A stretch of DNA of 64,000 bases, from assembly GCA_018667355.1 (NCBI GenBank), contig JABIVC010000003.1:9525-73524 (forward strand), in the 5' to 3' direction. The translations under genes were made by a program, and so were the position numbers. The stretch comes from Gammaproteobacteria bacterium. GTDB taxonomy: Bacteria; Pseudomonadota; Gammaproteobacteria; GCA-002705445; GCA-002716945. Positions 23,639-36,052 of this stretch are shown here, one piece after another (within the stretch, counting starts at the first letter, position 1; each line of letters starts with the position of its first letter). The notes below the pieces were generated by a model. The model saw only the letters and a list, made by a program, of their open reading frames with translations, did not search any database and was not told where the DNA came from.

Positions 23639-23677
23639 TCCTTATATTCCTTATAATAATTAATTAGATATTGAATC

Positions 23678-23759
23678 TACTCCTACCCCGACTCGAACGG
23701 GGACATCCGAAGATACGAGATTTTGAATCTCGCGTGTCTACCAATTCCACCATAGGAGC
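23678..23759 (-). tRNA. tRNA-Leu(CAA), CCA end not encoded
   Basis: Reverse complement GCTCCTA-TGGTGGAATTGGTAGACAC-G-CGAGA TT CAA AA TCTCG-variable arm-CCCCG TTCGAGT CGGGG-TAGGAGT-A folds as a class II cloverleaf. Confidence 0.95.
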
Positions 23760-23873
23760 AGAAAATCATTATTATATCAGAATGAAGATTATTCATTAAA
23801 TATTTGTTCTTATAATATAAACAACGCGTTATAAAATTTTAAATATTAATAGTATATCTAAAATTATGATATT

Positions 23874-24083
23874 ATGTTTTGTATGGAAACGTTGCTTATT
23901 TATTTTGTTTTAATTTCTTTATTAGTCATTATAGGTGTCTATTTTTATAAACAAATCATGCTTTCCAAGCAAATATCGCTCAAAGACACTACTCTTGAAA
24001 ATATTGAAGAAAAGCTTAAAAAACATAAGTTAATCGGTGGAAGGCACAAGAGAACTAATAAGAAAAACCCTCCGATTGTTTAA
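23874..24083 (+). CDS. small hypothetical single-pass membrane protein
   Basis: Hydrophobic N-terminal helix plus basic tail; fills the gap between the tRNA and the next gene; likely start at 23883. Confidence 0.5.
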   Translation: MFCMETLLIYFVLISLLVIIGVYFYKQIMLSKQISLKDTTLENIEEKLKKHKLIGGRHKRTNKKNPPIV

Positions 24084-24527
24084 TTAAGAGTTTTCTTTTT
24101 TCGCTGATTGAGCTAATTTAGCCATTTCTGGGGTGTATGCTGCTCCTTGCCAGAGCATACTATAGACGATTTCTTCATTACCATTTTCACATACATCAAT
24201 AACTTTTTGAAACAAGGGCTGAAATGTGTCGCTTTTATGGGAATTTTCATGATCCTCATATGATGTCCAGAATGTTATAATTAATGCTTCACGCCCCTTA
24301 AGTTCTGAGCTTAATGCTTTACCAATATTTGATCCTTCGTTGGATATTTGACCACTATTTAGAACAACCATGCCCCCAATAAATCCTGTATCCGAATGAT
24401 ATGTTTTAACATTTTCACACATCACTGCCACTCTTTCTTGAAGGTCGTCTAGCGTGTAGTTATCTTTGAGTATAACTCTGTTAATTGTTACTATTCCATC
24501 ATGCGGGAAGTTATTTATTAAGCTCAT
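24084..24527 (-). CDS. single-domain sulfur oxygenase reductase-like (dimeric alpha-beta barrel) protein
   Basis: VTINRVILK, VMC37, GFIGG, TFWTSYEDH93ENSH97 and GNEE119IVY mirror SOR N-terminal motifs. Confidence 0.65.
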   Translation of the reverse strand: MSLINNFPHDGIVTINRVILKDNYTLDDLQERVAVMCENVKTYHSDTGFIGGMVVLNSGQISNEGSNIGKALSSELKGREALIITFWTSYEDHENSHKSDTFQPLFQKVIDVCENGNEEIVYSMLWQGAAYTPEMAKLAQSAKKENS

Positions 24528-24560
24528 GGTTTATTAAACCAAAGATGAGCTAAAAAATCA

Positions 24561-24580
24561 ATATTAGAATATACTAATAT
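24561..24580. promoter_or_regulatory. perfect palindrome ATATTAG-AATATA-CTAATAT, candidate ArsR-family operator over the -10 of the SOR-like gene
   Basis: 7-6-7 inverted repeat read directly; minus-strand ATGTCA-N17-TATATT promoter has its -10 in the palindrome centre. Confidence 0.55.
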
Positions 24581-24589
24581 ATAATTTTA

Positions 24590-24617
24590 TTGACATAAGA
24601 TAGATTAAAAGTATTAT
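24590..24617 (+). promoter_or_regulatory. sigma70 promoter of the queA operon
   Basis: TTGACA (24590-95)-N16-TATTAT (24612-17). Confidence 0.55.
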
Positions 24618-31345: not shown

Positions 31346-31813
31346 ATGAAACTCACAACTAAAGGACGTTATGCAATAATCGCTATGGTTGATTTAGCCA
31401 TAAATGGAGTAGATGAACCTGCGCCCTTGAAAGAGATTTCCATTAGACAAAAAATCTCTCTTTCTTATCTGGAGCAGCTTTTTTCTAAACTGAGGATATC
31501 TGAGTTAGTTAAAAGTATACGTGGACCAGGTGGAGGCTATATGCTCAATAAAAGCCCTTCAAATCTAAATTTACTGGATATAATAACAGCTGTGGATGAA
31601 AAAATTGATCAGACTCAATGCGGCGGTGCAATGAACTGTATTAATGATAAACCTTGCCTGACTCATTTTATCTGGACAGATTTGAATAATAAAATTAATG
31701 ATTATATGAGAGAGATAACGTTGAGCGATATAACATTAAGAAAAGACGTACAAGGTATTATATTTTTAAGGGAGAATAAAAATGTCATCAGGAATCAAAG
31801 ATCAGAAAAATAA
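31346..31813 (+). CDS. iscR: Fe-S cluster assembly transcriptional regulator
   Basis: [27 protein letters not shown]; C-x5-C-x5-C-x2-H ligands. Confidence 0.95.
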
Positions 31814-33029
31814 ATTAAGCATACCTATTTATTTAGATTATTCGGCAACTACACCAGTTGATGAGAGAGTAGCTAAGGCAATGTCTGACTGTCTGACAAA
31901 AGAAGGAACTTTTGGAAATCCTGCATCTCGATCTCATCCATATGGATGGGATAGTGAAAAACTTATAGATAAAGCAAGAATTAATGTTGCTAACTTATTA
32001 GGTGCTGACAAAAGAGAAATTATATGGACAAGTGGGGCAACAGAATCAGATAATCTTGCAATCAAAGGAGCCGCATATTTCTATAAAGAAAAAGGAAATC
32101 ATCTTATTACTCTGTCTACTGAACATAAGGCTGTTTTAGATACAATGAGATTTCTAGAATCTGAAGGTTTTGAAGTCACATACTTAAATCCAAAAGATAA
32201 CGGTTTGGTTGATCTTGATGAATTAAAAAAAGCTATTAAGCCCACTACTATCCTTATATCTATCATGCATGTAAATAATGAAATTGGGGTAATACAAGAT
32301 TTAGAATCTATCGGTAAGTTATGCAAAGAAAATAAAATAGTCTTTCATGTAGATGCTGCGCAAAGTCCAGGAAAAGTTAAGATAGATGTAAATAAGTTTA
32401 ATATAGACTTATGTGCATTATCTGCTCATAAAGCATATGGGCCTAAAGGTATCGGAGCATTATATGTAAGAAGAAAACCTAGAGTTAGGTTGCAGCCACA
32501 GATGCATGGCGGAGGACATGAAAGAGGTTTTAGGTCAGGCACGTTACCAACACATCAAATTGTGGGTATGGGAGAAGCATTTAAATATGCTAAAACCGAA
32601 ATGACCAAAGATAATAAAAAAATTAAGAAACTTAGAGATATGCTCTGGGATGGCTTAAAAGATATGGAAGAAATATACCTAAATGGTGATTTTAACCAAC
32701 GAATACCTGGTAATTTAAATATTAGTTTTAACTTTGTTGAAGGTGAGAGTCTTATTATGGCAATAAAGGATATTGCGGTGTCATCTGGATCAGCATGTAC
32801 ATCTGCTAGTTTAGAACCTAGTTATGTATTAAGAGCCCTTGGAAGAGAGGATGAATTAGCACATAGTTCTATCAGAATGACTATAGGTAAATATACCACT
32901 GAGGAAGAAATTCTACATACTATAGACTTGTTAAAAAATGCAGTTTCAAGACTCAGATCTTTATCTCCTTTATGGGATATGTATAAAGATGGTATAGACC
33001 TGAAAACTGTTAAATGGGCATCACATTAG
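31782..33029 (+). CDS. iscS: cysteine desulfurase
   Basis: [29 protein letters not shown]-terminal W..H. Confidence 0.97.
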
Positions 33030-33033
33030 ACTT

Positions 33034-33357
33034 ATGAGTATTACGATTACAGATACCGCGGCAAAACATGTTTCAGCCCATCTTTTATCAAGAGGTAAGG
33101 GAATAGGTCTTAGATTGGGTGTAAAGACAACTGGTTGTTCAGGCTTAGCGTATGTAATAGAATTCGCAGATAAAATTGAAACTGATGATAAAATATTTGA
33201 AGACAAAGGTATTAAGCTAATTATTAATCCTAAAAGTTATGCTTACTTAAAAGGAACTGAACTAGATTTTGGCAGAGAAGGTCTTAATGAGGGTTTTAAA
33301 TTTAATAATCCAAATGTAAAAGATAAATGTGGGTGTGGCGAGAGTTTTAATGTTTAA
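33034..33357 (+). CDS. iscA: Fe-S cluster A-type carrier
   Basis: KTTGCSG, CGCGESF. Confidence 0.96.
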
Positions 33358-33872
33358 TGGATATATTAAAGAAGAACTTTTTTGAATTATTTAATATAAA
33401 CATATCCATCGATATAAATAAATCAGAACTTGATGAAAAAGTTAAAATCTTCCAAACTCAGTTCCATCCAGATAAATATGCTAATGGCTCAGACTTAGAA
33501 AAGAGACTAGCTCTTCAGATTTCTTCACATGTTAATGATGGGTATAAAGTTTTAGGAGATATTGTTTTGAGAATTGAATATATTCTTAAAATTAATAATT
33601 TCACTAAAGATGAATCTAAAACTATTAATGATATTAATTTTTTGCGAGAGCAAATAGAGTATAATGAGCTAGTAGAATCATTGGAAGAAAATTTTGACAA
33701 AGATATAATTGATGAGCATCTTTCAAAAATTAGATTATTATTAAAAAATACAATAGATAGTATTAAATTATTTTTTGATTCTGAGGATTATGAAAATATG
33801 TGGCAAAATCTGTCAAAACTAAGGTTTTATACAAAAAACATCAATGAACTTATCAAGATGAGAAATAAATGA
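33357..33872 (+). CDS. hscB: Fe-S co-chaperone
   Basis: J-domain NFFELF..FHPDKY; operon position. Confidence 0.92.
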
Positions 33873-35707
33873 GTTTGCTTCAAATATCAGACCCTTCTAT
33901 AAAGAACGATGACTTGAAAAAATTTGTTGTTGGAATAGATCTTGGTACAACAAATTCTTTGATAGCGTCATATGATTCAGGTTTAATCATTTACGAAGAT
34001 AATAATTCTAGCCTTATACCTTCCGTAGTTACGATAAATAGTAAAGGAAATATATCTATTGGTGCAGACGCAATAAAGAATTCAGATGATGATAAATCAA
34101 TATGTCTTGAATCTATTAAAAGAATAATGGGTTTATCTTATACAGATATAGAAGAGCTATCCCTTAAAGGTGACCTGCCTTTAATAAAGTCAGATAATAA
34201 TCTACCTAGTGTAATTGTTAATAATGAAAAATATTCAGCTATTGATATTTCCTCTAAAATACTACTGTATCTAAAAAAGTTAGCTGAAGATAATGAAAAT
34301 AAACCTCTGGATGGTGCCGTTATTACAGTACCTGCATATTTTAACGACATCCAAAGACAAGCAACGAAAAATGCTGCAAAATTAGCAGGAATCAATGTTT
34401 TGCGATTATTAAACGAGCCTACAGCGGCTGCATTAGCTTATGGTCTCGAGTCAAATGAAACAGGTTCGTTTATTATATATGACTTTGGAGGAGGCACATT
34501 TGATGTTTCTGTACTCACCTTGGAAAAAGGTATTTTTAAAGTTTTATCTACAGATGGTAATACACATCTTGGGGGCGATGATATTGATTATGAAATATCG
34601 AATTGGTTGCTAAACAATCATTCTTTTTTAAAAGGTTATAAAACTGCTGACCTCAAGAAGTATTCTAGAATTCTAAAAGAGTCAATTATCGATAAAGAAT
34701 TTACCTCTATGGATATTGATGGTAATACTATTTCTTTATCACAAAATAATTTCTCTAAAATTATTGACCCCATATTAGACAAGACTTTTGATATTGTTGC
34801 AAATGCTTTAGACGCATCAGGTTTATCAAAACATGATATTAAAAATATAATATTGGTTGGAGGTTCAACGAGAATTCATTGCATCAAATATATCTTAGAA
34901 AAAAAATATTCATGTGATGTTCTAAATGATATTGACCCTGATAAAGTTGTTGCTCATGGAGCAGCTATACAGGCATCTGTATTATCTGGGAATAATAAAG
35001 AGAATATTCTCCTTTTAGATGTACTGCCTCTCTCATTAGGTGTAGAAACTTATGGTGGCCTTTCTGAGAAGGTAATACTTAGAAATACGCCAATTCCCAT
35101 TAAACTAAGGAAAACATTTACGACGTTTAAGGATGGCCAGTCAAAAATTTTGATTAATATTATTCAAGGTGAACGTGAACTTGTTAACGATTGTAATTCG
35201 CTTGGAGAGTTTATTTTAAAAGATATTCCGTCTATGGTAGCTGGTGGTCCTAGAATAGATGTAGATTTTCAAATTGATGCTGATGGAATTCTTTCAGTTT
35301 CTGCTACAGAGACTACAACTGGTAATTCATCGATGATTGAAGTTAAGCCATCATATGGGTTATCTGAATCAGATATTAGTAGCATGATAGAGGAATCTAA
35401 TCAGAGCGCGGAAGCTGACATGCAATTAAGACGCCTTAATGAATCAATCGTAGAAGGCAAGAGGGTTATATATGCACTAGAGCAAGCACTGAATAGTGAT
35501 GGAAAGGAACTCCTCTCTACTGACGAATACAATATAATAACCAGAGAGTTAATAGCTCTAAAATCAAGTATAAATGGTGATGATTCTGAACTCATTGAGG
35601 ACAAGATTGTGTGTGTAGAAAAGGCATCAGAGTTTTATGTAGAAAGAAGGATGAATAGTAGTATAAAGTCACTTATTGCAGGTAAAGGTATAGATGATAT
35701 ACTGTAA
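33869..35707 (+). CDS. hscA: Fe-S chaperone Hsp70
   Basis: [37 protein letters not shown]. Confidence 0.94.
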
Positions 35708-35713
35708 AACGAA

Positions 35714-36052
35714 ATGCCAAAGATAACTTTTTTACCTAATCAAGATGTTTGCCCAGATGGTGCTATAGTCGAAGCACCAAAAGGAACGAGCATCTGTAAA
35801 GCAGCACTTGATAATGGAATACCTCTTGAGCATGCATGTGAGTTATCATGTGCCTGTACAACCTGTCATATATATATTGTTAAAGGCATGGAGTCATTAG
35901 CTGATGCAACAGAAGATGAGGATGATTATCTAGATAAGGCTTGGGGTTTGCAACCAAACTCACGCCTAAGCTGTCAGGCGCTTGTCAGTGATACTGATAT
36001 AACAGTAGAGATTCCAAAATATACAATTAATCATGCATCAGAGAGGCATTAA
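35714..36052 (+). CDS. fdx: ISC 2Fe-2S ferredoxin
   Basis: [18 protein letters not shown]. Confidence 0.96.

Follow-up and report, generated by a model that had tools for sequence, protein, structure and literature searches.

A half-size protein family related to sulfur oxygenase reductase accompanies DsrA in bacterial genomes

The window analysed here is a stretch of 64,000 nucleotides from a gammaproteobacterial genome (assembly GCA_018667355.1, contig JABIVC010000003.1, positions 9,525 to 73,524), and it encodes at 24084..24527, on the minus strand, a protein of 147 amino acids that is related to a sulfur-disproportionating enzyme, sulfur oxygenase reductase (SOR), and specifically to its catalytic N-terminal half. 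The family to which this half-size protein belongs occurs almost only in genomes that carry dsrA, the gene for dissimilatory sulfite reductase. The coding sequence starts with ATG and is the sole open reading frame (ORF) at that position; its product has no signal peptide visible in its sequence, as for a cytoplasmic protein, and is assigned the dimeric alpha+beta-barrel fold of the antibiotic biosynthesis monooxygenase (ABM) proteins. A previous sequence-only reading of this DNA had likened the protein to SOR by eye, and the sequence strings and residue numbers that it quoted (C37, H93, H97, C113 and E119, the key residues of the protein) are all present in the translation. What is new here is the sulfur-oxidising host, with SoxY and a dsr cluster, and the tracking of DsrA by the half-size family.

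Relationship to the catalytic half of SOR

The window protein matched the Pfam SOR model (PF07682) with an E-value of 5.9e-4 and 19.2 bits, its residues 12–125 falling on model positions 3–118, and the NCBIfam SulOxRed model (NF047630) with an E-value of 1.5e-4 and 20.8 bits. No family outscored SOR in the Pfam and NCBIfam scan of this protein; the ABM model (PF03992) reached an E-value of 0.15 and 12.7 bits, below its cut-off of 23.1. A phmmer comparison with PDB sequences found SOR 6m35 (E 2.8e-3), and when a profile was built from 14 clean, diverse members of the half-size family (alignment A2) its top nine PDB sequences were all SOR (E 8e-4 to 7e-3), aligned on SOR residues 6–127.

Genomes of the same class supplied a comparison set of 10 full-length genes for SOR or SOR-like proteins, which match Pfam SOR at E-values of 1e-60 to 1e-141. 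Against these, hhalign gave A2 a probability of 91.3% (E 9.3e-7, 114 columns), which rose to 93.9% (E 1.5e-7) against the SOR N-terminal half, whereas the C-terminal half gave 4.1% only. Subfamily 2, a more distant branch of the half-size family (about 128–136 amino acids, 31–38% identical to the window protein), matched the SOR N-terminal half when aligned alone (90.2%, E 1.6e-6). Since the two halves of SOR matched each other at 58%, the half-size family is nearer to the catalytic half of SOR than the SOR halves are to each other. The proposed alignment with SOR therefore stands beyond chance by Pfam, NCBIfam, phmmer, the A2 profile and hhalign, and so does the description of the protein as a single-repeat SOR relative. 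A further resemblance, claimed between a GFIGG-containing segment and the C-terminal half of SOR, came down to an insignificant stretch of 4.1 bits in phmmer, with hhalign at 4% for that half.

Within A2, four of the 14 members matched Pfam SOR at E <= 0.01 and two matched ABM (P0161, E 1.4e-8; P0183, E 0.001). P0161 was the sole A2 member above the Pfam SOR cut-off (28.2 versus 25 bits), and in a scan of the 13 other A2 members and three subfamily-2 locus proteins it also exceeded the ABM cut-off (35.3 versus 23.1 bits); as it passes both, it bridges the SOR and ABM families.

The hhalign columns placed C37, H93, H97, C113 and E119 on SOR Cys31, His86, His90, Cys101 (the first Cys of the CxxC motif) and Glu114, respectively. 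For subfamily 2, C37, H93, H97 and E119 were each present at every one of 80 species-level loci; among 120 close relatives of the window protein, H93 and E119 were present in all and C37 and H97 in 119 each. C113 was retained in 76 of the 80 loci, with Ala in the other four, and in 119 of the 120 close relatives. In PMC7398979, H86, H90 and E114 are given as the SOR iron ligands, the mutants H86A, H90A, E114A and C31A are described as inactive, and C101A and C104A as showing a loss of about ten-fold; the sulfur of the SOR cysteine is placed roughly 9-13 A from the metal site. Judged from these alignments, the equivalents of the metal ligands and of Cys31 appear to be kept almost throughout the half-size family, as the sequence-only reading had suggested for the window protein, and a corresponding iron site is proposed. 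Its remark that a lone Cys lies near the position of the SOR CxxC motif was also accurate: C113 aligns with the first Cys and the second is missing.

Co-occurrence with DsrA and the sulfur-oxidising host

The distribution of the half-size family was profiled in 300 genomes sampled at class level, one or two per taxonomic family (genome G271 was not scorable), with E <= 1e-5 as the threshold for presence of the half-size family. It was found in 57 genomes, DsrA in 93, SoxY in 143 and RuBisCO in 125; full-length SOR was found in 10 of 301. DsrA was present in 53 of the 57 genomes with the half-size family and in 40 of the 243 without it (odds ratio 67). The corresponding counts were 51/57 and 92/243 for SoxY (odds ratio 14) and 49/57 and 76/243 for RuBisCO (odds ratio 13). 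One unpublished genome, G319, was counted for SoxY only; it lacks the half-size family and changes nothing.

The link to DsrA held when the sample was restricted to SoxY-positive genomes (DsrA in 47/51 with the half-size family versus 38/92 without) or to RuBisCO-positive genomes (46/49 versus 33/76). Within DsrA-positive genomes, the presence of the half-size family was independent of both SoxY (47/53 versus 38/40) and RuBisCO (46/53 versus 33/40). A second sample, of 216 genomes taken at phylum level, contained eight positive for the half-size family, seven of them outside the class; DsrA was present in all eight, and the half-size family was found in none of the 162 DsrA-negative genomes. 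Where a full-length SOR was present in the class-level sample, the half-size family accompanied it in 7 of 10 genomes, at separate loci.

The host genome (G000) is small, at 1.03 Mb in 17 contigs with 31.6% G+C and an estimated completeness of 94%. It encodes SoxY, six rhodanese domains and a dsr cluster that, by Pfam content, runs DsrA, DsrB, DsrE, DsrF, DsrH and DsrC, followed by DsrMKLJOP-like and DsrN-like genes (dsrABEFHCMKLJOPN); on the basis of SoxY and this cluster the host is a small-genome sulfur oxidiser of the Dsr type. The RuBisCO large subunit was not found in this 94% complete genome, and the same pattern of SoxY and a dsr cluster, with no RuBisCO large subunit found, was seen in the congener G009 (99% complete). 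The host would be a very small sulfur oxidiser without a Calvin cycle. Source records of near-identical proteins name a marine gammaproteobacterium. Given the sox and dsr genes of the host and the co-occurrence with DsrA, the connection to sulfur metabolism drawn in the sequence-only reading is upheld.

Predicted fold and assembly

An AlphaFold2 model made from A2 (predicted local distance difference test (pLDDT) score 88.8) showed a ferredoxin-like order of elements (beta-alpha-beta-beta-alpha-alpha-beta) with an additional C-terminal helix; strands were placed at 12–20, 49–56, 80–87 and 118–123, and helices at 26–44, 90–97 and 102–110. Foldseek matched this model to 125 PDB chains at E <= 0.001, and re-alignment in VIA gave sequence identities to the ABM structural matches of 4–18%. 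By this model, the fold is an ABM-type alpha+beta barrel.

The protein is probably a homodimer, as had been proposed earlier. Prediction of the homodimer scored 0.79 against 0.00 for the best control; among solved structures, 20 of 30 homo-pairs and 1 of 23 single chains reached that mark. The dimer runs agreed in at least 87% of contacts, with a partner pLDDT of at least 81, and in the predicted dimer strands 48–64 pair with 119–133 of the other copy. As many ABM dimers have been solved, this pass may reflect likeness to them.

Breadth, subfamilies and annotation of the family

Relatives of the window protein numbered 4339 at E <= 0.001 among 4349 candidates of 80–258 amino acids (90%-identity clusters). 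In a 50%-identity library there were 147 representatives at E <= 0.001, the longest of 235 amino acids, many of them fragments or frame-shifted calls. A two-half form of about 300 amino acids was not found among the half-size relatives; a search of longer proteins gave two, each a single domain with unrelated extensions. Subfamily 1 is that of the window protein, with 82–100% identity among the 120 best matches. Subfamily 2 was confirmed in at least 587 stretches of species-representative genomes, and its hosts belong to the Gamma-, Beta- and Alphaproteobacteria, including Ectothiorhodospiraceae, Chromatiaceae, Gallionellaceae, Rhodocyclaceae, Thiotrichales and Arenicellales.

Neither Pfam nor NCBIfam holds a model for the half-size family, and its members are named 'hypothetical', 'Uncharacterized protein' or 'ligand-binding protein SH3' in databases. 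Literature searches turned up neither an account of a half-size SOR nor one of its family, supplements with proteomic or transcriptomic tables lying outside that search. In PMC11267869, the genes with lowered levels on pyrite include Allochromatium vinosum Alvin_1688 ('antibiotic biosynthesis monooxygenase'), listed next to DsrC, DsrF and a SirA-family protein; a link between Alvin_1688 and the half-size family would be conjecture.

Two observations concern full-length SOR itself. A second class of SOR-like proteins (loci L093–L098) was present in 6 of 301 genomes; these are about 315 amino acids long, match Pfam SOR with E-values of about 1e-61 to 1e-64, are 32–34% identical to canonical SOR and keep the Cys, His, His, CxxC and Glu residues. 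In genome G099, a full-length SOR (L092 1363–2400, plus strand; Pfam E 4e-134) is encoded by a frame that opens with a twin-arginine-like signal (RRKFLK and a hydrophobic stretch), which suggests that this SOR is possibly exported. SOR is regarded as a cytoplasmic enzyme.

The upstream region and a second copy of its palindrome

The gene is separated from the divergent queA by a gap of 101 bp that contains the palindrome TATTAG-N6-CTAATA at 24562..24579 (20 nt with the flanking A/T pair at 24561 and 24580). The palindrome, which the sequence-only reading had pointed out, is real and was kept in all eight congeneric genomes; in three of these both arms have changed symmetrically, to TATAAG-N6-CTTATA, and the dyad is preserved. 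A second genus has a one-mismatch copy ahead of the gene. Loci from other genera of the host's taxonomic family (L115, L117, L118, L121, L122, L124, L126 and L127) have another conserved sequence upstream, TTGCAA-(A/T)T(T/C)-AAAAAGAAATTTG, in place of the TATTAG palindrome, and two of these loci contain a perfect CAAATT-N7-AAATTTG dyad.

A promoter-like site for the half-size gene (24568..24596, minus strand; ATGTCA, 17 nt, TATATT; 9 of 12 consensus matches) has its -10 element at the centre of the palindrome. One for queA (24590..24617, plus strand; TTGACA, 16 nt, TATTAT; 11 of 12 matches) abuts the palindrome, which could therefore act on either gene, and the queA site explains the conserved ATGTCAAT block. 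The consensus scan returned seven promoter-like sites in the region against 6.9 expected, so that the site of the half-size gene is by itself no evidence of function. An inverted repeat in the leader, GCTCAT...ATGAGC (24522..24550, minus strand), includes the start codon and folds at -11.0 kcal/mol (z -2.95) in the window genome. The leader hairpin that had been read from it did not survive comparison, the structure not being kept in seven congeners (z -2.6 to +0.9).

The 1.03-Mb genome holds two exact copies of the palindrome, compared with 0–1 in five shuffled versions. Copies with one mismatch numbered 27 versus 15–18 in shuffles, an excess too weak to define a regulon, and a regulon based on them was rejected. 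The second exact copy lies about 35 bp before a gene for a 115-amino-acid ArsR-family regulator (contig 15 of the host genome, locus L105 1024–1371, within the region 976–1794), downstream of which come a membrane-anchored rhodanese, secB and gpsA. Among solved structures the regulator is closest to BigR (3pqj, E 6e-19), with both BigR cysteines aligned; next come YgaV and entries 6o8k–6o8o, which we take to be SqrR. With a BigR/SqrR-like regulator gene behind the other copy of the palindrome, a persulfide-sensing repressor is a plausible controller of the half-size gene. The site at the regulator gene was invariant in five congeneric genomes, including two in which the site before the half-size gene is changed. 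Co-variation of the two palindromes was accordingly rejected, and since the regulator's site is invariant where that of the gene has changed, BigR/SqrR-like control is to be taken as a lead only.

Transcript evidence and gene neighbourhood

A 258-nt contig from an RNA library equals positions 24128–24385, inside the gene, without differences. RNA-library contigs cover the stretch sparsely, and such contigs cannot prove transcription or its level.

In the window the gene stands alone, with the divergent queA-tgt-yajC-secD-secF genes on one side and a convergent 69-amino-acid ORF, a tRNA-Leu gene and a pfkB kinase gene on the other. There is no sulfur-gene neighbourhood in the window or across the 80 subfamily-2 loci. 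Pfam was run on 135 of the 145 nearest flanking ORFs of these loci, 10 longer than 620 amino acids being left out. The only sulfur-related recurrences were a DsrC-like gene that immediately precedes the half-size gene, in the same orientation, in three of the 80 loci (L027, L034 and L069) and a 5'-nucleotidase-C protein of SoxB-like size flanking two (L051 and L086).

The 69-amino-acid ORF (23874–24083, plus strand) ends one base before the half-size gene and begins with a hydrophobic stretch resembling a membrane helix; Pfam gave no match for it. Across eight congeners its last 35 residues (LKDTTLENIEEKLKKHKLIGGRHKRTNKKNPPIV) hardly vary, unlike the hydrophobic N-terminal part. Beyond it lies tRNA-Leu(CAA) (23677–23760, minus strand), the conserved part of which (23719–23752) attracts RNA-library contigs of many other organisms. 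An iscR-iscS-iscA-hscB-hscA-fdx cluster at 31346–36052 is 7 kb from the half-size gene; it has no recognisable iscU between iscS and iscA (ORF 31782–33029 is followed by 33034–33357, Fe-S_biosyn).

Discussion

SOR (PF07682, NF047630; structures 2cb2, 6m35 and 7x9w) is the nearest family to the window protein by sequence and shares its ferredoxin-like half-barrel fold. Equivalents of Cys31, His86, His90, Glu114 and Cys101 are kept, and both proteins are cytoplasmic and found in sulfur oxidisers. Unlike SOR, the protein has 147 rather than about 310 amino acids and corresponds to the N-terminal half only; it lacks the second Cys of CxxC and scores under the curated cut-offs; and it is a predicted homodimer in place of a two-half monomer, the comparison with the 24-subunit SOR cage being one of sequence and dimer model only. 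The half-size family is also far more widespread (57/300 versus 10/301 genomes). With ABM proteins (PF03992; SnoaB 3kg0, ActVA-Orf6 1lq9, IsdG/IsdI), which are its best structural matches, the protein shares its size class and, by prediction, the homodimeric barrel. It differs from them in a long conserved loop at 57–79 with an S-x-EGS motif, in the extra C-terminal helix and in the invariant Cys/His/His/Glu set, which is that of SOR; the active sites of ABM enzymes of the SnoaB, ActVA-Orf6 and IsdG types are not known to match this set. The proposed functional analogues are the persulfide dioxygenases (ETHE1/PDO/Blh), which use non-haem iron and O2 to convert persulfide sulfur to sulfite and are in some bacteria under repressors of the BigR/SqrR type. 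These have a metallo-beta-lactamase fold and unrelated ancestry, and no homology with them is claimed.

The association with Dsr, together with a host that oxidises sulfur, makes sulfane-sulfur chemistry the best-supported function for the half-size protein. As to its mechanism, we consider it an even call whether the protein is an iron-dependent oxygenase or disproportionase acting on a persulfide bound at C37, a proposal that draws on the aligned residues. On this proposal the protein, cytoplasmic and probably homodimeric with an ABM fold, would correspond to the catalytic half of SOR working on its own, with a mononuclear non-haem iron held by H93, H97 and E119. C37 would carry sulfane sulfur as a persulfide, which might come from low-molecular-weight persulfides or be handed over by a carrier, for example rhodanese, TusA or DsrC. 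O2 would then be used at the iron site to oxidise the C37-bound sulfur to sulfite, possibly along with a SOR-like disproportionation to sulfide and thiosulfate. Dsr would not depend on the protein, which would offer sulfane sulfur an accessory or overflow path alongside that pathway. The conserved palindrome over the -10 region may serve to control its expression, possibly through the BigR/SqrR-like repressor of the genome.

A number of findings weigh against this oxygenase proposal. The window protein scores under the curated SOR cut-offs of both Pfam (19.2 versus 25 bits) and NCBIfam (20.8 versus 400 bits), the second Cys of CxxC (SOR Cys104) is absent from the alignment of the half-size family, and even C113 is replaced by Ala in four of the 80 subfamily-2 loci. 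The top Foldseek matches were ordinary ABM proteins (SnoaB, FasU, IsdI and TT1380), and in VIA re-alignment SnoaB 3kg0 led (Z 14.5, rmsd (root-mean-square deviation) 1.4 A over 97 residues). SOR 2cb2 stood 42nd by Z (11.2) among the 50 rows listed, though it had the longest aligned length there (126 residues), and the structural alignment to it picked the C-terminal half of SOR. Such generic ABM matches weigh partly against a relationship with SOR, although SOR itself consists of ABM-like halves. The sequence-only reading had held that it would fall if the best structural matches were unrelated ABM proteins and the four active-site residues were not conserved or clustered, with no iron binding or sulfur turnover; the matches are indeed generic ABM proteins, but the four residues are conserved. 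From the genomes, the half-size family is absent from 40 of the 93 DsrA-positive members of the class-level sample, and in the taxonomic family of the host 22 of 24 genomes carry the gene and genus g4 is without it, though G012 has DsrA; Dsr therefore works without the half-size protein. The Fisher values for the DsrA link (2e-28 and 1e-5) overstate its significance, as the sampled genomes are related and not independent, and incomplete genomes can hide genes. All-against-all clustering of ORFs found no neighbouring family in more than five of the 80 subfamily-2 loci, and the 135 flanking ORFs had mixed functions. Finally, a dependence on O2 is not assured, since Chromatiaceae, Ectothiorhodospiraceae and Rhodocyclaceae include anaerobes or facultative anaerobes.

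This last point bears directly on an alternative in which the protein is an O2-independent sulfur carrier or accessory of Dsr oxidation and the His/His/Glu set is structural, regulatory or occupied by another metal. C37 might then accept and donate persulfide sulfur, or the protein might be a metal or redox helper, with no oxygenase chemistry in either case. Such a carrier would share the same association with DsrA, would make use of the invariant C37 and would suit the loss of the second Cys of CxxC, the DsrC-like gene directly upstream in three of the 80 loci and the phototrophic and denitrifying sulfur oxidisers among the hosts, which often live without O2. The known carriers TusA, DsrE, rhodanese and DsrC, however, have other folds. 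A complete 2-His-1-carboxylate set that is essential in SOR (PMC7398979) and invariant in 80 of 80 loci is also hard to explain for a carrier, and we regard this alternative as possible but unlikely.

The structural matches leave room for another account, that the protein is an ABM monooxygenase or stress protein acting on a non-sulfur substrate (quinol, haem or other) and that the link with Dsr reflects shared ecology or ancestry. In agreement with it, cofactor-independent oxygenases and ABM proteins head the Foldseek and VIA lists, two of the 14 A2 members (P0161 and P0183) match Pfam ABM and the neighbouring genes are heterogeneous. Against this, the link is specific to DsrA, holding within RuBisCO-positive and within SoxY-positive genomes, and those traits add nothing within DsrA-positive ones; SOR is the nearest family by sequence, with C37, H93, H97, C113 and E119 all on SOR active-site residues; and the window protein itself reaches ABM only at E 0.15. 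We therefore think a non-sulfur function improbable. The annotation 'ligand-binding protein SH3', by which the protein would be an SH3-type ligand-binding protein, has the database name alone in its favour. No SH3 family appeared in the Pfam and NCBIfam scans, the confident model is an alpha+beta ferredoxin-like fold and not an SH3 barrel, and other sources name the relatives 'hypothetical'; we reject this annotation as wrong and see practically no prospect of an SH3 function.

Neither curated scores nor architecture place the window protein within SOR, and the best classification for it is a new family of the ABM superfamily, as a sister of SOR. The oxygenase proposal can be extended to a 'mini-SOR' that has gone unrecognised although it is widespread. 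This homodimeric iron enzyme would oxidise or disproportionate persulfide sulfur in the cytoplasm of Dsr-type oxidisers, among them abundant marine ones whose genomes measure 1 Mb; it would be turned on by way of a BigR/SqrR-type persulfide sensor and would represent the single-domain source of the duplicated, cage-forming SOR. Taken as a whole, this extended version is doubtful.

SOR has been treated as an isolated enzyme family, mostly of thermophiles, and roughly one in five of the genomes sampled from the class carries a half-size relative with its full set of catalytic residues. At the least, a propagated mis-annotation is corrected and a family is put forward for Pfam and NCBIfam to define. 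If active, the half-size protein would extend by one enzyme the network that handles sulfane sulfur in the cytoplasm of globally abundant sulfur oxidisers. SOR chemistry could then be studied in a simple dimeric model, and ideas on the evolution of the SOR cage could be tested on it. The half-size family may thus be an unstudied part of bacterial sulfur oxidation.

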